Virus record (IMG/VR): IMGVR_UViG_3300021400_000126
Location: 32,001-96,000 of that record
DNA from: a virus
Taxonomy: Duplodnaviria > Caudoviricetes
DNA length: 64,000 bases
Strand: one strand, 5' to 3'
Below, one piece after another: positions 30,950 to 38,911 of this stretch (positions are counted from its first letter, which is position 1; each line of letters starts with the position of its first letter). The notes beneath the pieces were generated by a model, which saw only the letters and a list, made by a program, of their open reading frames with translations, ran no database searches and was not told the DNA's origin. A program made the position numbers and the translations under genes.

Positions 30950-31837
30950 ATGATTCAGAATAGTGCAGATGTTTTAGATTTTGAAATAGAAAATGATGAT
31001 AATAATAATGATATTATTCCAAACTCAATAAAAATATATCTAAGAGAAATAGGTAAATATCCACTATTAACGCGGGAAGAGGAGAATAAAATCGCTACCG
31101 CCGCATTAAGTGGTGATTCAGAGGCAAAAGAAAAATTAATTAATCATAATTTAAGATTGGTTGTTTCTATTGCCAAAAGGTATATGGGAAGAGGTTTAAA
31201 TTTATTAGATTTAATTCAAGAAGGTAATGTGGGGCTTATTAAAGCTGTAGAGAGATTTGATGTATCAAAGGGTTTTAAATTTTCCACATACGCAACCTAT
31301 TGGATTAAACAATCTATTTCTTATGCTATTGCAGACCAAACTAGAAATATTCGTATTCCTCCACATATTATAAAATTAATTAATAGCATACAAAGGGTTG
31401 AACAAAATCTTTTACAAGAGAAAAAAAGAAAGCCAACACAAGAAGAAGTAGCAAAAATACTAAATATAGATATTAAAAAAATTAAAAATGCATATTCTTG
31501 GATTAAAGATACTACTTCTTTAGATATAGTAATTGGAAATGATGAAGATGCTACTATTGGTTCTTTAATTGAAGATAAATCAACTGAATCTGATTTTCTT
31601 TCAATAGAAAAAAAAGAAACTTCTGAGGTAATAGAAAATGTCCTTAATACTCTTAGTGAAAGAGAAAAAACCGTCATTATAAAAAGGTTTGGATTAGGGG
31701 GACATAAGGCAGAAACCTTAGATGAAATAGGAAAAACTTTAGGTTTGAGTAAAGAAAGAATTCGTCAGATAGAAAACTCTGCTTTAAGAAAACTTAGGAA
31801 TCCGCGGCGAGCACGAATTCTAAAAGAAATTTTTTGA
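30950..31837 (+). CDS. RpoD/SigA-like sigma-70 factor (regions 1.2-4, no region 1.1)
   Basis: [68 protein letters not shown]. Confidence 0.95.
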
Positions 31838-31900
31838 TTTTTTTAAAAATTTTTGTTATAATATATAAGTAAGATAAATAATATTTATTTATTTTATAAA

Positions 31901-32063
31901 TTTACGGTCACATAAGACCTAAAAATGGACGTTAGCATGGATTAGAGTTAAACTACCACTGGCATAACCAAATATTCAGGACTTTGATTGTTTCTAAACA
32001 GCCCGCCTGGAGGCGTATGATATGTGGCTTTGTGACAAACGTCTAATAAAGAGGCAAAGTAAA
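31901..32063 (+). ncRNA. putative structured RNA A
   Basis: follows a promoter; helices GTCACA/TGTGAC and GACGTT/AACGTC; shares motifs with 33461..33639. Confidence 0.45.
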
Positions 32064-32089
32064 CTCAATTTAAGAAACAGGTGATATAA

Positions 32090-32263
32090 ATGAAAGTTTT
32101 AATAAAATGTGAACGATGCGGAAGATATATTTATAATACAGACGCAGTTAATATTACTATTAATAATAAAGAGTCTTATAATGTATGTAAATCTTGTTCT
32201 AATTATTTTAATAACTGGTTAAAAGGAAGAAAAAATTTAGGAGTTATTGAAGTTAAAAATTAA
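32090..32263 (+). CDS. small Zn-finger protein (CERC...CKSC)
   Basis: AGGTG RBS, 57 aa. Confidence 0.6.
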   Translation: MKVLIKCERCGRYIYNTDAVNITINNKESYNVCKSCSNYFNNWLKGRKNLGVIEVKN

Positions 32264-32270
32264 AATTTTA

Positions 32271-32369
32271 AAGACAGTTACAGCAAAAATATTACAATGT
32301 AGTGGTTTACAAATTGACTATTAATCAATCTTCGCTGGTTCGAATCCAGCATTGTTACGAAACTGTCTT
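32271..32369 (+). ncRNA. ACAGCAA-motif RNA copy 1, enclosing a tRNA-like module
   Basis: closing stem AAGACAGTT/AACTGTCTT; inner ACAATG/CATTGT, ATTGA-CTATTAA-TCAAT and GCTGG-TTCGAAT-CCAGC. Confidence 0.7.
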
Positions 32370-32374
32370 GATAA

Positions 32375-32449
32375 GGCCCCTTCGTCTAATAGGCTTAGGA
32401 CACGATCCTTTCACGGTCGTAATGTGGGGTTCAAATCCCCCAGGGGTCA
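32375..32449 (+). tRNA. tRNA-Glu(TTC)
   Basis: cloverleaf, loop CT-TTC-AC. Confidence 0.9.
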
Positions 32450-32456
32450 TTTCTTT

Positions 32457-32538
32457 GCGGCTATGGTGGAACTGGTTTACACGCAGGACTTAAAATCCTG
32501 TGATTTAATTCATGTGAGTTCGAATCTCACTAGCCGCA
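32457..32538 (+). tRNA. tRNA-Leu(TAA)
   Basis: cloverleaf, long variable arm. Confidence 0.9.
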
Positions 32539-32544
32539 TAATTT

Positions 32545-33075
32545 GGACTGTTGGCTTAATGGTGAAAGCAACTGGCTCATCTCTGGAAAGACTTATTTTT
32601 TAATAAAATGAATACAAATTTAATAGGAACAATTACAGAATTGAAATGTCAATTATATCTTTTAAATTTAGGATATACAATATCTGTTCCAGTTAATCCT
32701 GACAGATACGATTTAATTTTAGATACAGGAAAATAGTTATTAAAAATCCAAATAAAAACTTGCAACAATAATAAAGAAGGAGTTTTAACTTTTTCAACTT
32801 GTTCTTCTCATTATGTTCAAGGTAAACACGTTCACTCTTCCTATAAAAAGGATAATATTGATTATTTTATGACTTGTTGGGAGTAGAATTATTATTTAAT
32901 TCCTGTAGAAGAATGTGGTAAAAGAGAAAAAGTTTTAAGAATTTTACCAACTAAAAATGGTCAAATAAAAAATATATGTTTTGCTAAAGATTATATTGTT
33001 TAGGAGGTTCTGAAAAAAAGATAAGTAAGACGGAGATGAACCAGCAGATTCGGGGTTCAAATCCCTGACAGTCCA
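32545..33075 (+). tRNA. tRNA(CAT), probably Ile2, interrupted after the anticodon (exons 32545-32580 and 33039-33075)
   Basis: GGACTGT/ACAGTCC acceptor; joined halves give CTGG-CTCATAA-CCAG. Confidence 0.85.
32608..33024 (+). CDS. PD-(D/E)XK homing-type endonuclease inside the tRNA(CAT) insert (138 aa, TAG read-through)
   Basis: G.ITE, RYDLI, KIQIKT, Y....IDYF motifs of the I-Ssp6803I/PDDEXK_5 type. Confidence 0.85.
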
Positions 33076-33086
33076 GTTAAATATTT

Positions 33087-33160
33087 GGCCTGGTGGCTCA
33101 GCTGAGTAGAGCACTGCCCTGTCACGGCGGAGGTCGTGGGTTCGAATCCCATCCAGGTCG
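33087..33160 (+). tRNA. tRNA-Asp(GTC)
   Basis: cloverleaf. Confidence 0.9.
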
Positions 33161-33164
33161 TTAT

Positions 33165-33236
33165 GGCAATGTAGTTCAGTGGTAGAACGCCTGACTGTTA
33201 ATCAGGATGTCGAAGGTTCAATCCCTTCCGTTGCCG
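33165..33236 (+). tRNA. tRNA-Asn(GTT)
   Basis: cloverleaf. Confidence 0.9.
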
Positions 33237-33241
33237 TTTGT

Positions 33242-33312
33242 GGGCGGTTCGCTCAGTGGTTGAGCAGAGGACCTTTAATCCTCCTAGATGGGTTCGATTC
33301 CCATACCGCCCT
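33242..33312 (+). tRNA. tRNA-Lys(TTT) with atypical C33
   Basis: GAGGA-CCTTTAA-TCCTC anticodon arm. Confidence 0.75.
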
Positions 33313-33361
33313 TTATAACAAAATTTGATTTTTTTAAAAATTTTTGTTATAATATAAATAT

Positions 33362-33445
33362 AAGACAGTTACAGCAAAAATGATGGGTTATCAAGAAAAT
33401 TTTATATTAACAATTATATTAACTATTAATGATTTATACTGTCTT
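33362..33445 (+). ncRNA. ACAGCAA-motif RNA copy 2
   Basis: AAGACAGT/ACTGTCTT stem plus TACAGCAA, directly after a TTGATT/TATAAT promoter. Confidence 0.65.
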
Positions 33446-33460
33446 GAAAATTTAATAAGG

Positions 33461-33639
33461 TATATAATAATAACAATGGTGACTGAATTTAATAGTGTAC
33501 ATAAACATTCAGAGAGTCCACCACACTGCGGCGATCGGGAGAGTGAGATCATAGCAGACTACCTACTGGAGTCATGACCAGGGAATTCAGGCTATAGAGG
33601 AAAGGGAGCCTAAAAAATGGACGAAGTTATTATTATATA
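33461..33639 (+). ncRNA. putative structured RNA B
   Basis: perfect 14-bp terminal inverted repeat, several internal hairpins, GTCCA/TGGAC pairing. Confidence 0.55.
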
Positions 33640-33805
33640 AATATGTTGAAATGTGCGGCTAAGCATTGGGAAATACATTGCCTGGAATGCAATCAACACA
33701 CTCGGACAGGTAGAGCACATACATTTAGCGAGAAAAACTTTTAATTAAAACCTTGTGAGTTGTATAGGTTGATGACATTACGATGACATCAAAAAACTCT
33801 CTTTT

Positions 33806-33882
33806 CGCCCGCTAGTCTATACTGGTATTGAGGACAGCGGTCTCTAAAACCGCGGAGCTGGGTTCGATTCCCAGGCGGGTGA
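33806..33882 (+). tRNA. amber suppressor tRNA (anticodon CTA)
   Basis: CGCCCGC/GCGGGTG acceptor; GCGGT-CT-CTA-AA-ACCGC anticodon arm; CTGGG-TTCGATT-CCCAG T arm. Confidence 0.93.
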
Positions 33883-34123
33883 TTAAGGGTGTGCGGCCAC
33901 CCTTTAAGACGTCGTCAGGCTAGAGGATCCTGGATACACTTTCTTTTGAAAGACAAGTAACTCACCCACTAATCAGGGTGGTGATTAGTCAGCGGTTTGG
34001 TAATCACGCGGCCCCAGCCAAAGGGTAGCTAAAATAAGAGGTGGTTGATACGCCTAAGTATCCTAGAAAAGGTGCACATTTTCTAGTATTAAATGCGGTT
34101 ATATAATATCAAAACCGCATTTT

Positions 34124-35019
34124 GCTCCTTTAGTTTAATGGTAAAACAATAGATTTGTTCACCCAATTAAAAATAATTGGAAAAGAAAGATAAATATCAT
34201 GTTAGAAACAAAGCAAAAAGGTATTATAACTTAGCTTCAATGTTTAACAGCCTTTAATGAATTAGGTTTAAAAACTTCTATTCCATATGGAGAGAATTCA
34301 AGATATGATTTTATTGTAGACATAAATGGAAAATTACTTAGAGTACAAGCAAAAACAGCTTCTGGTATTTTAAATGAAAACAATGAATTAGCAGGAATTC
34401 GTTTTTCTTGTAGGTCAACTAGAGTATCTGCACAAGGTAATTTTTATAGAAAATACAATAAAGATGAAATTGATTATTTTTGTACTTTTTGGAATAATAC
34501 TTGCTATGTTGTTCCTGTTGAAGAATGTAGTAATGAAAAAACCTTAAGATTTATGTATCCATCCAATGGACAAAAAAATACAATTTCATTAGCAGAAAAT
34601 TATACTATTGAAAAACAATGGAAAAAATATCTACCTGAAAATAGTGAATTTGAAAAACTTAGAGATAATTTAAATATTATTTTATATGGAAATAATAGTT
34701 AGAATAAATGTAAAAAATGTGGAAAACCTATCTCTAAAACTGCAGAGTTATGTATATCATGTGCAGCATAGAAGCAACATATTGTAAAAGATAGACCTTC
34801 AAGGTAGGAATTAAAAGAAATGATTAGAATCCTTCCTTTTACACAAATTGCAGATAAATATCATATTACTGATAATGCAGTTAGAAAATGGTGTGATACA
34901 TAGAATTTACCAAGAACAAAATCAGAAATTAAATCAATTTCTGATGAAGATTGGATAAATATTTAATTTAACATGGGTGAACAAATCTATTGATCTCAGT
35001 TCAATTCTGGGCGGGAGCT
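34124..35019 (+). tRNA. tRNA-Thr(TGT), interrupted after the anticodon (exons 34124-34158 and 34984-35019)
   Basis: GCTCCT/GGGAGC acceptor; joined halves give ATAGA-TTTGTAA-TCTAT. Confidence 0.8.
34199..34966 (+). CDS. PD-(D/E)XK endonuclease with C-terminal Zn finger and HTH, inside the tRNA-Thr insert (255 aa, TAG read-through)
   Basis: KG.IT*, PYGENSRYDFI, RVQAKT, IDYF; CKKCG..LCISC; IADKYHITDNAVRKW. Confidence 0.85.
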
Positions 35020-35020
35020 T

Positions 35021-35095
35021 TGCGGGTGAGTGAAACGGAATATCACCGCTGGTCTCATAAGCCAGAGATAATGGGTTCGACTCCCATACCCGCAA
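35021..35095 (+). tRNA. tRNA-Met(CAT), initiator-like
   Basis: TGCGGGT/ACCCGCA acceptor, CT-CAT-AA loop. Confidence 0.8.
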
Positions 35096-35120
35096 TTATC
35101 TCATTTAAAAGGAGGAGAAC

Positions 35121-35675
35121 ATGGCAAAAGTTAATTTATCGCCGCCATGGGTGGAGTATTATAAAGAAGTTAGTGAGTTTTTTAGAGATGATTAGGAAAT
35201 CGGCGTTCTTTATGACGAAAATAAGAATGAATTAAAGATTTATGTAGACAATCCTGATAGAGCGGTTGCTCTTGCAGAATTATTCCCATTAGAAAAGAAT
35301 TTTGGAAATGTTAAATTATACATCTCTATAATTCCATCTAATAAAAAAGTAAATAACAATAAACTAAAAGTAGCTTATCCATCAACTGTTGCAGCTGCAT
35401 TAGCTAACTGCCCCGCGGTAGATAGTATTAGAGAAGTAAAAACATTTTTTGATATAGATTTAATATATGTTTTATTTAAAAATAAAGTAGTTCAATATTT
35501 CATAGATAATATTGGTGATTATAATGGAATGAAATCTACTTTATATGAAGACATTGCTAGAAATATATTTGAAGATGTAGATGGTGTATTTTTTTGCACC
35601 GCTTTACCTGATAATTTATCTTCATATACAATAAAAATGCCAGAAAATAGCATCACTTATTGTGGTTGTCAGTAA
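35121..35675 (+). CDS. hypothetical phage protein (LSPPW...D..G..STLYEDIA), with an in-frame TAG
   Basis: AGGAGG RBS; continuous frame with TAG read-through. Confidence 0.75.
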
Positions 35676-35713
35676 ATGAGATGTAAAATAAGTACCAGCT
35701 ATGCTGGTGCTTC

Positions 35714-35798
35714 GGAGAGATGTCCGAGTGGCTTATGGAGCTGGTCTTGAAAATCAGAGTACTGAAAGGTACCGCAGGTTCAAATCCTGCTCTCTCCG
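35714..35798 (+). tRNA. tRNA-Ser(TGA)
   Basis: cloverleaf, long variable arm. Confidence 0.9.
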
Positions 35799-35802
35799 TT
35801 TT

Positions 35803-36080
35803 GGGGTTGTAATGGTTTCGACGGGGATTTGAAAACCACAAACTCGTTCGAGTGATTTCGTTATCAATCAAACTTAAATATAAACGCTGATAATTATACA
35901 TATCAGATGGCTGCCTGAGTTTGCAGTCACCAAAAGACTATGAGATATTGCTGGTAATAGTTGAGGTTCAAAAACAAGCATATTAAAATTTTAAAACTTA
36001 AAAATAGCACATTCTTAAACAACGTAAAGGTTTGCGGTAAGTAGGGTTTTCGGACAGCGGTTCGATTCCGCTCAGCTCCA
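35803..36080 (+). ncRNA. ssrA: tmRNA, tag (A)ADNYTYQMAA
   Basis: 5' GGGGTTGTAATGGTTTCGAC; 3' GGACAGCGGTTCGATTCCGCTCAGCTCCA; tag ORF from 35886 ending in AA then TGA. Confidence 0.9.
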
Positions 36081-36128
36081 TTTAAAAATTTTTTGATTTT
36101 TTATAAAAATTATTTTATAATATATTAT

Positions 36129-36190
36129 AAGGCAATAACAGCAATATTTATGTTATTCCTAAACTGCAAATTTGGGTTAAAAATTGCCTT
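36129..36190 (+). ncRNA. ACAGCAA-motif RNA copy 3, with a Cys-anticodon-like stem-loop
   Basis: AAGGCAAT/ATTGCCTT stem; CCTAAA-CTGCAAA-TTTGGG. Confidence 0.65.
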
Positions 36191-36197
36191 GATATTA

Positions 36198-36230
36198 TGC
36201 CCAGTCGCTAAGCGGTAAGGCACAATAATT
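36198..36230 (+). pseudogene. 5' fragment of a canonical tRNA-Gln
   Basis: TGCCCAGTCGCTAAGCGGTAAGGCAC. Confidence 0.55.
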
Positions 36231-36233
36231 TTT

Positions 36234-36304
36234 AGGGGATTATCACAACAGTAGTGAGCATGGCTTTGACCCATGATACGTAGGGGCAGCACCTACATCC
36301 CCTG
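36234..36304 (+). tRNA. atypical tRNA-Gln(TTG)
   Basis: all four stems pair; D loop lacks GG; T loop is GGCAGCA. Confidence 0.7.
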
Positions 36305-36319
36305 TTCAGAGGAGAAAAA

Positions 36320-36722
36320 ATGGAAACAAAAAAAATGTAGTAAATGTGGAAAAGAATTACCATTATCATCTTTTCCTTGGAGAGATAAAAATAAAGGTAC
36401 TTATAGAGCTGATTGTAAAGAATGTCATTCTAATTATATGAAATAGCAATATCGGCAGAAAAGACAAAAAATTCAAAATTTAAAATCTAACTTAACTTGT
36501 GCTAAATGTGGAGATAAAAGAGGTTATGTTTTAGATTTTCATCATATAAACCCAAAAGAAAAATAGGAAACTGTATCCAGGTTGACGAGCAATACTTCAA
36601 GTTTATAGAAAATATATAATGAAATTAAAAAATGTATTGTTCTATGTGCTAATTGTCATAGAGAATTTCATTATTTATAGAAACAAAAAGAAAATTTTAC
36701 TTTAAAAGATTATTTGTCTTGA
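36320..36722 (+). CDS. HNH endonuclease (TAG read-through; +1 frameshift in the A8 run near the start)
   Basis: CSKCG, CKEC, CAKCG, LDFHH, LCANCHREFH. Confidence 0.75.
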
Positions 36723-36758
36723 CTCATACATTCACTGGTTCGAACCCAGCTACCCCAG
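36719..36758 (+). pseudogene. 3' fragment of a canonical tRNA-Gln(TTG)
   Basis: TTGAC...CTGGTTCGAACCCAGCTACCCCAG. Confidence 0.6.
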
Positions 36759-36823
36759 TTTTTATAAAAGATAAAATTTGAAAAATTAAAAAATTTTTAT
36801 TATAATATTTATATAAAATAAGA

Positions 36824-36884
36824 TAGACACATACAGCAATTAATAATTAGGATCAAGGTAGAAAAACAATAAATTAAGTGTCTA
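36824..36884 (+). ncRNA. ACAGCAA-motif RNA copy 4, in the leader of the DUF2828 operon
   Basis: TAGACAC/GTGTCTA stem plus ATACAGCAA, after a promoter. Confidence 0.6.
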
Positions 36885-36999
36885 GTTTAAAAATTTTAAG
36901 ATTAGTTTTTGGAAGTTATTAAACATTACTTCACTCCCTTTCTTTTGTTTTTAGGCTAGGTATGTATTTATACCTAGCCTATTTTTTTGGAGGAAAAAT

Positions 37000-37362
37000 A
37001 TGCTTTATGTAATTTATGCTTATGATGATAAATATGGTGGTTATCATGGAATGTCAGATTGGTCTATTTGGGATTGTAGAAATGAAGAAGAAGCAATTTC
37101 AATAGCACAAGAAAATTCCATGGATGTAATAAATTCTTTTAGTGCCATTTATGATGAGTTAGAAAATGACATAGAATATTATACAGACGAATCTATGTCT
37201 GAAAGTGATATTGAGCAACTTCGATATAATATTTATCAAGAAGATATCGCTTATGATATTTGGAAAATTGATTCAGATATAACAAAAGAATTTGATATTT
37301 GGACTCTTGAAAAAATGTTAAATGATAACCCCGAAGATTTCATTAAAAAATATTGTAATTAA
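37000..37362 (+). CDS. acidic hypothetical protein
   Basis: GGAGG RBS. Confidence 0.7.
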   Translation: MLYVIYAYDDKYGGYHGMSDWSIWDCRNEEEAISIAQENSMDVINSFSAIYDELENDIEYYTDESMSESDIEQLRYNIYQEDIAYDIWKIDSDITKEFDIWTLEKMLNDNPEDFIKKYCN

Positions 37363-37378
37363 TAAGGAGATTTTACAT

Positions 37379-38911
37379 ATGAATACTTTTTTAAATGAAA
37401 TGAAAAATAATGCAAATTTTGATTATACAGAAAATGGTGGATTAACAAGAAAAACAACTAAATCCAAAGTATTAGATATGTTTGGAATGGGCGGAGCTTA
37501 TAGAGAGCGTTCAGATAGCGATGTCATTTTACTATTCAAAGAAGCATTTGAAGAAGATGCTTTATTGGCTATGAAATGTCTTTTTTATCTTCGTGACATT
37601 CGCGGAGGCCAGGGAGAAAGACGTTTCTTTAGAGTAGCTTTTAGATGGTTATGTAATATCCATCCCGAAGTTGCAAAGAAAAATCTTATCAATGTTAGTG
37701 AATATGGACGTTGGGATGATTTAATTTATACAACAGTAGGAACTAAATGTCAAATAGATGCATTTAATATTATTAAGCACCAGTTAGCTCTTGATATTAA
37801 ATGCAATACTCCTTCTTTACTTGCTAAATGGATGCCTTCTCAAAATGCTTCCAATGAATATACAAAAAAATTAGGCTATATATTAGCTAATTTTCTTGGT
37901 ATGACGAGTAGAGAATATCGTAAAACTTTATCTGTTTTACGAGAAAGAATTAATGTCCTTGAGCGATTAATGAGCGCGAATCGTTGGAATGAAATCAAAT
38001 TTGATAAAATTCCTTCTAAGGCGGGCCTCATATATAAAAATGCTTTCGCTCGCCGCGACATTCTCGCCAAGAGATATGAAGCATTTGCCAAAAGTGATAA
38101 GACTAAAGTAAATGCAGAAGCTCTTTATCCTCACGACATTGCTCATATGGCTTTGAGAGGAGTACAGTGTAAAGACATCGAAGACCCCGAACGTCTCATG
38201 CTTCAAAAGTACTGGGATAATTTAAAAGATTTTTATAATGGAAGAGAAGAAAATGGACTTGCTATAGTTGATGTATCTGGCTCAATGTACGGAACCCCCA
38301 TGGAAGCCGCAATTTCTATGGGAGCATATATTGCAGATAAAGCACATGGACCTTTTGCAAATCATTTTATTACTTTTTCCGCTCATCCTAAATTAGTAGA
38401 ATTCAAAGGCATTGATATTGTTGATAAATTCAATCGTTGTATTAATGCGGACTGGGGGATGAACACTAATATTCAAGCGGTATTTGATATGTTATTAGAT
38501 ACTGCAAAAAAGAAAAGGGTAAGACCAGAAGATATGCCGACTCGACTTTATATTTTTTCTGATATGGAATTTGATAGGTGTGTATTTTTTGATAATAGCT
38601 CTTTTAAATCATCCCAAGATATTTGGGGAGGATGGTCAAGAAGGAATAGTGTTAGTTCTATAGAGGAAATAAATTCCAATCTTGAACGCATCAAACAGAA
38701 TTGGGAAGCCGCAGGATACAAAATACCTTCAATTATCTTTTGGAATTTAGATGCTCGTCATAATCATATTCCCGCTATTGGTGAAGGATTTAGTTATGTA
38801 AGCGGATTTTCCCCCAGTATGATTGATTGTATTTTAGGAGGTAAAGATGGTTATGATTTGATGATTGCTAAACTAGTTGAGTCTGGAAGGTATGATAAAA
38901 TTGTAATTTAA
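37379..38911 (+). CDS. DUF2828-type helical + vWA protein (TROVE/Ro60-like architecture)
   Basis: TENG, RDIRGGQGERR, YGRWDDL, AKWMP, MIDAS DVSGSM, TN, FSDMEFD, FWNL, VSGFS. Confidence 0.85.
   Translation: MNTFLNEMKNNANFDYTENGGLTRKTTKSKVLDMFGMGGAYRERSDSDVILLFKEAFEEDALLAMKCLFYLRDIRGGQGERRFFRVAFRWLCNIHPEVAKKNLINVSEYGRWDDLIYTTVGTKCQIDAFNIIKHQLALDIKCNTPSLLAKWMPSQNASNEYTKKLGYILANFLGMTSREYRKTLSVLRERINVLERLMSANRWNEIKFDKIPSKAGLIYKNAFARRDILAKRYEAFAKSDKTKVNAEALYPHDIAHMALRGVQCKDIEDPERLMLQKYWDNLKDFYNGREENGLAIVDVSGSMYGTPMEAAISMGAYIADKAHGPFANHFITFSAHPKLVEFKGIDIVDKFNRCINADWGMNTNIQAVFDMLLDTAKKKRVRPEDMPTRLYIFSDMEFDRCVFFDNSSFKSSQDIWGGWSRRNSVSSIEEINSNLERIKQNWEAAGYKIPSIIFWNLDARHNHIPAIGEGFSYVSGFSPSMIDCILGGKDGYDLMIAKLVESGRYDKIVI

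Follow-up and report, generated by a model that had tools for sequence, protein, structure and literature searches.

A homing-endonuclease insert without a detectable ribozyme in a phage tRNA-Thr(UGU) gene, and its possible removal by proteins

To our knowledge, the tRNA introns of bacteria and their phages have all been thought to be self-splicing group I introns, and the splicing of tRNAs by proteins is counted among the distinguishing traits of archaea and eukaryotes. This study concerns an 825-nucleotide (nt) insert that carries a homing-endonuclease gene and interrupts the tRNA-Thr(UGU) gene of a phage between tRNA positions 36 and 37. The phage genome, IMG/VR record IMGVR_UViG_3300021400_000126 (Duplodnaviria; Caudoviricetes), is complete, with 133,306 bp and direct terminal repeats. 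The window analyzed is the 64,000-nt stretch of its bases 32001-96000, and positions are counted from the first base of that window unless another locus is named. As the phage carries a transfer-messenger RNA (tmRNA), its host should be bacterial. Our analysis suggests, with a probability of roughly 45%, that the insert is a mobile, ribozyme-free intron that is removed by proteins.

The closest described element is the group I intron in the tRNA-fMet gene of Synechocystis PCC 6803, whose PD-(D/E)XK homing endonuclease, I-Ssp6803I, belongs to the family PF11645 (PMC3384342, PMC1995217). That intron is 655 nt long and contains an open reading frame (ORF) of 150 amino acids (aa) (PMC1995217). The phage insert shares with it the endonuclease family, the anticodon-loop site, the mobile logic and the D...QxK variant of the active site. 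In contrast, the Synechocystis intron leaves about 200 nt for a ribozyme, whereas the phage insert has only 57 nt of non-coding sequence, gives no group I match, ends in A and pairs its ends with the anticodon. Further, the Synechocystis intron is found in tRNA-fMet only, whereas the phage inserts occur in at least 15 tRNA species.

In archaea and eukaryotes, the splicing of tRNAs relies on a bulge-helix-bulge motif, the EndA/Sen endonuclease and an RtcB or Trl1 ligase, and some archaeal tRNA introns carry homing-endonuclease genes; the catalytic domain of EndA is said to have been regarded by Bujnicki and Rychlewski in 2001 as a derivative of the PD-(D/E)XK fold. The phage insert resembles these introns in having no ribozyme, in a 3' part that pairs with the anticodon region and in having one splice site on each strand of an extended anticodon helix, and a ligase would be needed here as well. 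It differs from them in its site (36/37 rather than 37/38), in having neither the 3-nt bulges nor the 4-bp helix, in the absence of EndA and in its bacterial hosts.

The 'enigmatic' tRNA introns of Lak megaphages are short, conserved, partly tRNA-like and unclassified by Rfam (Devoto et al. 2019, PMC6784885). Like the present insert, they lie in the anticodon loops of tRNAs of stop-codon-recoded gut phages and have insert-free alleles; unlike it, they are reported with no endonuclease ORF, anticodon pairing rule or mechanism (PMC6784885). Other tRNA-cluster endonucleases are free-standing, such as T4 SegB and the PF11645 enzymes of Pectobacterium phage My1 and Kuttervirus, which are encoded beside tRNAs and presumably target them. 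Their genes lie between intact tRNAs, whereas the present gene lies inside a tRNA and carries a rod-like pairing of the insert ends. The anticodon-loop repair of T4 (PrrC nuclease, Pnkp and Rnl1) is a precedent for phage enzymes that reseal a broken tRNA, and a ligase and a Pnkp-like kinase are present here too; the T4 system, however, repairs a host attack and removes no insert, and the ligase here is of the Rnl5 type. The survey of Williams 2020 covers group I introns only. Beyond the Lak-phage tRNA introns, we found no published description of the class, and a large family of ribozyme-free, endonuclease-bearing phage tRNA inserts is apparently unpublished.

The split tRNA-Thr(UGU) gene and its endonuclease

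The features of the locus, all on the + strand, are as follows:
34124..34158, +: tRNA-Thr(UGU) exon 1, tRNA positions 1-36, ending in the anticodon TGT (joined-exon tRNA call and cloverleaf parse)
34159..34983, +: 825-nt insert at 36/37, an intervening sequence free of recognizable ribozymes (sequence; Rfam negative)
34199..34966, +: homing-endonuclease ORF, 255 aa, five in-frame TAG codons, I-Ssp6803I-type PD-(D/E)XK (PF11645, 2OST, fold)
34984..35019, +: tRNA-Thr(UGU) exon 2, positions 37-73, first base A37 (joined-exon tRNA call and cloverleaf parse)
34149..34165, +: 5' strand of the rod, comprising anticodon stem 27-31, loop 32-33, anticodon 34-36 and insert +1 to +7 (exact 17-nt inverted repeat, by script)
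34974..34990, +: 3' strand of the rod, comprising insert -10 to -1 and then tRNA 37-43, with ACA pairing with the anticodon (inverted repeat; layout of 38 loci)

When joined at 36/37, the exons give a canonical 71-nt tRNA-Thr(tgt) with the 7-nt loop TTTGTAA in ARAGORN, and an independent cloverleaf parse finds 6/7 acceptor, 5/5 T, 4/4 D and 5/5 anticodon-stem pairs. The phage genome has no other tRNA-Thr. The insert consists of 40 nt 5' of the ORF, the 768-nt ORF and 17 nt 3' of it (non-coding total 57 nt), and ends in ACA, the reverse complement of the anticodon TGT, so that its final base is A and not G. The initial annotation of this sequence had described an 825-nt insert at the 36/37 site, an exact 17-mer inverted repeat, the ACA end and a nuclease ORF with TAG codons, and all of these features are present.

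A second split tRNA with the same geometry lies upstream, followed by an amber suppressor tRNA:
32544..33076, +: companion tRNA(CAU), split at 36/37 (ARAGORN on joined exons; cloverleaf parse)
32581..33038, +: companion insert, 458 nt, final bases ATG (same geometry as the tRNA-Thr insert)
32608..33024, +: companion endonuclease ORF, 138 aa, three in-frame TAG codons, a single-domain paralogue (PF11645 match)
33805..33883, +: amber suppressor tRNA(CUA) (ARAGORN and Rfam)

Both split tRNA genes were missed by ARAGORN and Rfam in their normal modes, and the intron mode of ARAGORN detects both but puts the intron in the wrong place.

The 255-aa protein is composed of a PD-(D/E)XK domain (residues 1-140), a zinc ribbon (about 169-190) and a helical module resembling DNA-binding domains (about 200-255). 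It matches PF11645 (PDDEXK_5) at 1.4e-22 and 80.6 bits (cut-off 26.1), and the companion protein, which is 36% identical to it, matches at 6.6e-26. The only real PDB match is 2OST (0.0012 by sequence, 6.8e-17 by profile over the full domain, and a fold E-value of 1.9e-9 with a template-modelling (TM) score of 0.71 in Foldseek), and the next fold relatives are Holliday-junction resolvases (Hjc). Residues D37, D41, Q50 and K52 do not vary among 23 homologues and correspond to YD...VQVK in 2OST; presumably the catalytic residues are among them, as a D...QxK variant. On family sequence, fold and active-site motif alike, the enzyme is assigned to the I-Ssp6803I type (PF11645).

The zinc finger and helix-turn-helix of the initial annotation have weaker support in Pfam, with an E-value of 0.002 for the CxxC...CxxC zinc ribbon and of 0.27 for the helix-turn-helix, which the C-terminal part of PHROG 15471 matches at 7e-6, likewise a weaker call. 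Yet the C-terminal zinc ribbon and helical module are conserved in two related loci (L038 and L041), and the predicted structure models the module confidently as a helical bundle, with a predicted local distance difference test (pLDDT) score of 91-96 against 89 overall. Across the family, the synonymous sites of the endonuclease ORFs are saturated (dS 0.6-2.4), and omega, the ratio of nonsynonymous to synonymous rates, is 0.04-0.35, which indicates that the enzyme is under purifying selection.

The phage shows stop-codon recoding, with in-frame TAG in many of its ORFs, and both endonuclease ORFs would need the suppressor tRNA(CUA) for read-through, so that the endonuclease would be made only once this tRNA is active. 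The TAG at codon 12 (34232-34234) and another in an independently recoded phage (L022:1228-1230) fall in one alignment column that has Glu in 21/23 homologues, the Glu of a T-E-L motif in which I-Ssp6803I has Gln. This column, as aligned, bears on whether TAG encodes Gln or Glu here; an earlier reading of the suppressor tRNA gave it Glu-type identity elements. Judged from the alignment, the TAG at codon 12 is a stop-codon lock on a conserved nuclease residue.

The rod formed by the insert ends and the anticodon arm

Positions 34149-34165 form a 17-mer whose exact reverse complement occupies 34974-34990, and the inverted repeat extends imperfectly to 30 nt at 87% (34147-34176 with 34963-34992). 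In the minimum-free-energy fold of the full 896-nt precursor, the resulting helix, referred to here as the rod, forms with pair probabilities of at least 0.996, and the acceptor stem is formed as well. The first seven bases of the insert pair with its bases -4 to -10, and its last three bases pair with the anticodon. Counted from tRNA position 27, the rod has 17 positions, is centred on nucleotide 35 and includes U33-A37 and the anticodon stem, with the two junctions on opposite strands, 3 bp apart and with a 3' stagger. In length and centre, the rod matches the anticodon arm, which is the pseudo-palindromic DNA target of the enzyme. Bonocora and Shub reportedly found in 2001 that both DNA strands are cleaved by I-Ssp6803I beside the anticodon, with 3-nt 3' extensions as the result, a pattern that the 36|37 junction and the 3-bp stagger would fit.

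For the comparative analysis, a profile was built from three proteins and identified 45 loci in IMG/VR and further loci in contigs of metagenome-assembled genomes (MAGs); the MAG-contig scan gave gut MAG or phage loci and Acidobacteriota loci, and no cyanobacterial group I example. A cloverleaf parser that was blind to the insert ends, together with a hand parse of five loci, yielded 38 distinct split tRNAs. All 38 are interrupted at 36|37 and have intact cloverleaves, although the detection required good cloverleaves and was thereby biased against decayed exons, which it could not see. The interrupted tRNAs represent 15 anticodons (CAT, TGT, GTT, TTT, TGA, GAT, TCT, ACG, TAC, TAA, GCA, TTG, TGC, TGG and TAT), and the inserts measure 443-483 nt with a single-domain enzyme and 666-825 nt with extended enzymes.

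In these 38 loci, the anticodon triplet is paired with the insert end in 110/114 cells, as compared with 59 on average and at most 74 when partners were shuffled 1000 times, and the core helix (34-36 plus +1 to +3) is paired in 217/228 cells versus 82-101 in slid registers. The +1:-4 pair is Watson-Crick in 38/38 loci, and three to six pair types occur per column. In nearly all loci the rod runs without a break from 33:37 to +3:-6, with 32-38 as the only regular mismatch (29/38); a mismatch is frequent at +4:-7 (16/38), and pairs form again up to +7:-10, beyond which pairing breaks off sharply, with 4/38 paired at +8. Single mismatches in the anticodon triplet are found in four loci (L001, L013, L025 and L037). 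The covariation of the last three insert bases with the anticodon, which the initial annotation had proposed as a check, is present across 15 anticodons and about 12 independent target switches, and the comparative pairing data strongly support its view that a structural rule rather than chance is at work. We take a chance origin of the rod geometry to be excluded by these data.

G-U replaces Watson-Crick pairs in several lineages (GTT/AGC, TGC/GTA, TGG/CTG and CAT/GTG). These substitutions fit RNA pairing of the rod and not DNA identity, and its covariation, as we read the alignments, is explained only by single-stranded pairing. The rod has no conserved bases beyond those of the tRNA itself. 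Two other descriptions of the rod were rejected. Its distal half is not a sequence mimic of tRNA 37-43, as only 6-15/37 identities per position were found, which is the expectation from base composition; and a bulge-helix-bulge intron was dismissed since there are no two 3-nt bulges with a 4-bp helix and the rod is continuous.

The G-U pairs also bear on excision at the DNA level, in which the inverted repeat in single-stranded DNA would form a B-form hairpin with the left half and the centre of the homing site restored, which the endonuclease would cut and a ligase would reseal, so that some genome copies would regain an intact tRNA. Given the cleavage pattern reported for I-Ssp6803I, such a hairpin would hold both scissile bonds in native substrate form, and the position of Holliday-junction resolvases as the closest fold relatives after 2OST speaks for the same idea. 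In DNA, however, the G-T positions of the rod are mismatches. Cut-and-paste of duplex DNA was rejected as well, because by hand reasoning the overhangs at the two junctions are not cohesive, so that it cannot restore the gene, and because the G-T positions break the identity of the repeat. Further, an insert-free allele of tRNA-Thr, sought with a 20-nt junction pattern, gave 0 matches in viral contigs and 10 in metagenome contigs that were unrelated, resembling neither the exons nor the flanks. We consider DNA-level excision very unlikely.

Group I splicing had already been doubted in the initial annotation from the final A of the insert, and its rejection holds. No Rfam group I, group II or self-cleaving ribozyme model matched the region 31800-37000, which contains both inserts (E<=5), Intron_gpI had no match at gathering score in the window, and no Rfam intron or ribozyme matched inside the inserts of 20 related loci (E<=1), the group I models having been run without a positive control from a true tRNA group I intron. 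Across 37 junctions, the last insert base is A in 17, G in 10, C in 7 and T in 3, and merely complements base 34 instead of being an omega-G; base 36 differs from tRNA to tRNA (T, A, G or C) and is not restricted to U (rarely C). Group I splicing needs about 200 nt or more of structured non-coding RNA around the ORF, and the tRNA-Thr insert offers 40 + 17 nt; in the class as a whole, 15-46 nt lie before the ORF and 2-17 nt after it. As the synonymous sites are saturated, no conserved RNA core should be hidden within the ORF.

Catalysis by RNA could take another form, namely a very small cleaving or splicing motif in the rod or a trans-acting phage ribozyme. This idea is favored by the conservation of the rod as a structure, by structured RNAs elsewhere in this tRNA region (about 31901-32063 and 33461-33639) that an earlier reading of the sequence had left unassigned, and by odd RNAs in phage tRNA arrays. 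The latter are sub-threshold matches to twister-P1 in an array near a split tRNA (L042:740-791, 34.7 bits, E 8e-4), to the 5' end of ROOL RNA beside the tRNA cluster of Enterococcus phage EFP01 (L051:1530-1608, ending at the locus edge) and to RAGATH-33 in arrays near split tRNAs (L018:2652-2769 and L017:1-37). On the other hand, the lack of conserved rod bases beyond those of the tRNA and of any Rfam ribozyme match in or at the inserts speaks against it, and 57 non-coding nt with free synonymous sites leave no room for a cis-acting core. We therefore give RNA-catalysed removal little credence.

Spread of the insert and state of the interrupted genes

The cultured phage EFP01 carries a 463-nt insert in tRNA-Asn(GTT), at 105278-105740 of record KY549443 as derived from L051:568-1030; the record annotates a hypothetical protein only and leaves the tRNA-Asn unannotated. 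About 29 Schiekvirus relatives of EFP01 carry an uninterrupted tRNA-Asn, and that of EFDG1 is identical to the joined EFP01 exons (71/71). Insert and exon have different bases on either side of each EFP01 junction, which places GTT|...AGC|AA unambiguously at 36|37. In the clade of CAT inserts, the inserts are about 85% identical and the exons 65-95% identical, and the flanks are unalignable, which indicates that the element moves horizontally between phages. Presence/absence polymorphism at an identical site and horizontal spread, the marks of a mobile element, are thus both found. At the DNA level, the interpretation of the insert as an I-Ssp6803I-family homing-endonuclease gene at 36|37, which is passed horizontally among phage tRNA genes that share an anticodon, with an occasional switch of tRNA, is well supported by these comparisons. 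A target-site duplication or repair footprint was rejected as the source of the terminal triplet because it would give a direct, not an inverted, repeat. A 12-42 nt gap pattern for ORF-less mini-versions of the CAT-class insert gave 17 matches, none of them in a tRNA.

The endonuclease tree clusters by anticodon (CAT 97/92, TTT 99/99, TGA 100/100, and GTT plus one GAT 96/92) and needs about 12 target switches, after which the terminal triplet matches the new anticodon. One split tRNA-Ile(GAT) (L025:1134-1672) has its endonuclease within the GTT (tRNA-Asn) clade and still has the AGC end, with an A-G mismatch at base 35, unlike another GAT insert (L028), which has the ATC end; from its sequence, L025 looks like a recent target switch that has not yet adapted. 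A split tRNA(CAT) with an odd 16-nt variable region was also found on a 3-kb contig binned as a Methanomethylophilaceae archaeon (L057, contig CAVBAX010000171.1), which is probably a mis-binned phage fragment.

PF11645 enzymes also occur free-standing beside or between intact tRNA genes (L020, at 1095-1630; L021, L036, L043, L045, L046, L048 and L061), as well as in phages My1 (L052) and Kuttervirus SM5 (L053), the Kuttervirus gene lying 24 nt after tRNA-Met(CAT). Judged from these gene orders, the family has two lifestyles in phage tRNA arrays, inserted and free-standing.

The sequences hint that the split genes are in use: the cloverleaves are intact in 38/38 cases, the split gene is the sole copy of its anticodon in 10/11 arrays, and the endonuclease ORF is broken in only 1/38 inserts. 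The array data come from 11 non-CAT phages, of which ten have a 20-kb tRNA array of up to 34 genes without an intact copy of the split anticodon. The exception is L039 (L039:1123-1675 and L107), where a split tRNA-Leu(TAA) contains a truncated 55-aa ORF, the one broken endonuclease ORF, and an intact tRNA with the same anticodon lies nearby.

A selfish homing-endonuclease gene might instead disable a dispensable tRNA that is never restored, with the rod serving the endonuclease transcript; the site at 36|37 would then be the place where the enzyme cuts, and the insert would protect its own allele from being cut again. The rod may in that case clamp the ends against exonucleases, act as a processing site that frees the mRNA, or couple termination and folding. 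Phage tRNAs are often dispensable, horizontal movement of the insert means that intact exons can be young, and the free-standing PF11645 genes between intact tRNAs indicate that homing needs no intron. Moreover, 2-17 nt separate the stop codon from the end of the insert and put it in or next to the 3' strand of the rod, so ribosomes and rod must interact, and no ligase or nuclease co-varies with the insert. However, a mere clamp requires neither the pairing of insert end and anticodon kept up through about 12 switches nor a fixed length of 17 positions. There are no decayed exons among the 38 inserts despite dS values of 0.6-2.4, in a survey whose parser required good cloverleaves, and the status of the split gene as the only copy in 10/11 arrays also speaks against disablement. 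Further, the inserts never carry a replacement tRNA, as an HNH-endonuclease cassette elsewhere in the window is said to do in the initial annotation. Taken together, we regard the disabling of the tRNA as the main alternative explanation, somewhat less probable than removal by proteins.

Candidate splicing enzymes and implications

If the insert is a ribozyme-free intron removed by proteins, a protein endonuclease would cut both rod strands at the two junctions, the tRNA halves would stay held by the rest of the tRNA fold, and an RNA ligase would then seal them into a functional tRNA-Thr. At the RNA level, the rod is a structure seen in the comparative data, and its function is what we infer from it.

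An Rnl5/DraRnl-like ligase and a Pnkp-like kinase of the phage would be available for the sealing step. They form an RNA-repair pair outside the window (G000:C1:110961-112975; L050:835-2975), in which a 411-aa ligase of the Rnl5/DraRnl/NgrRnl type (PF21189 OB domain plus PF09414; 5COT at 6e-30) precedes a 166-aa Pnkp-like P-loop kinase; the phage genome has neither RtcB nor Rnl1. Rnl5 joins a 3'-OH to a 5'-P, RtcB uses the opposite end chemistry, and Rnl5-type ligases are known for sealing nicks in duplexes. Strong PF09414 matches were present in 9/23 insert-bearing versus 1/8 free-standing records, PF09511 in five, and RtcB, among the insert-bearing records, only in EFP01. On these counts, the co-occurrence of RNA ligases is permissive and not discriminating.

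The nuclease could be the enzyme that the insert encodes, whose family is reported to cut DNA with an identical 3-nt 3' stagger, or another enzyme of the phage or host. Four known nucleases were rejected: RNase III, because its 2-nt stagger would give an 8-nt loop and its gene is also absent from the phage; RNase P and RNase Z, which the geometry would rule out; and EndA, which is absent, the fold match to 3AJV being negligible (E 0.075, TM 0.16-0.24 in Foldseek). A more specific proposal is that the homing endonuclease of the insert doubles as the tRNA splicing endonuclease, cutting DNA to spread and RNA for removal, with an RNA ligase of the phage or host to complete the joining. The folded precursor would present a 17-position duplex that mimics the homing site in its left half and centre, with the scissile bonds in the native 3-nt 3' stagger. 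By analogy with the reported DNA cleavage, this dual role is conceivable, and we consider it unlikely.

Several points weigh against removal by proteins in general. We know of no protein-only tRNA splicing in bacteria and their phages, hence its low prior, and the rod lacks the bulges that archaeal splicing endonucleases need. EndA (PF01974) was absent from the complete phage genome in a search that was positive in four archaeal controls, and RNase III was absent from the phage. RtcB is found in EFP01 and equally in the insert-free EFDG1, so that ligases do not track the insert, and an insert-bearing phage genome that is 96% complete (G014) is without all three ligase families. In addition, about 85% identical inserts in unalignable flanks suggest that intact exons could reflect recent invasions, and the cloverleaf requirement of the survey works in the same direction.

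The surroundings of the locus contain further elements. The region 32.3-36.1 kb of the window holds every tRNA gene of the phage together with the amber suppressor tRNA(CUA) and the tmRNA. The HNH-endonuclease cassette mentioned above was flagged by an earlier reading of the sequence at 36198-36760, among tRNA-Gln-like pieces, and a tRNA at 36234-36304 was scored by Rfam (46.7 bits) and missed by ARAGORN; this cassette may be a different, tRNA-shaped insert class or one that supplies a replacement tRNA. Directly after the tRNA/tmRNA cluster, 37322-38911 encodes a 529-aa protein with DUF2828 and DUF7788, described earlier as TROVE/Ro-like, and a weak YrlA-like Rfam match at 33128-33195 overlaps tRNAs.

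The new elements of this study are the controlled count over 15 anticodons, the rod with its constant 17 positions and its centre at nucleotide 35, the phylogeny of target switches, the saturation of synonymous sites, the test for the only copy in an array and the absence of any ligase family that follows the insert. As standard annotation misses split tRNAs of this kind, phage tRNA inventories and the codon-usage arguments built on them are biased. EFP01 and its insert-free relatives constitute a cultured system, which makes the question of splicing directly testable. If the homing endonuclease also splices, it would represent the first case in the bacterial world of tRNA splicing by proteins only and a living analogue of the proposed descent of the archaeal splicing endonuclease from PD-(D/E)XK nucleases. 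More broadly, removal of these inserts by proteins could mean an unrecognised bacterial splicing route, with a bearing on how tRNA splicing arose in archaea and eukaryotes; alternatively, homing endonucleases may routinely knock out phage tRNAs and keep an RNA structure for their own use.

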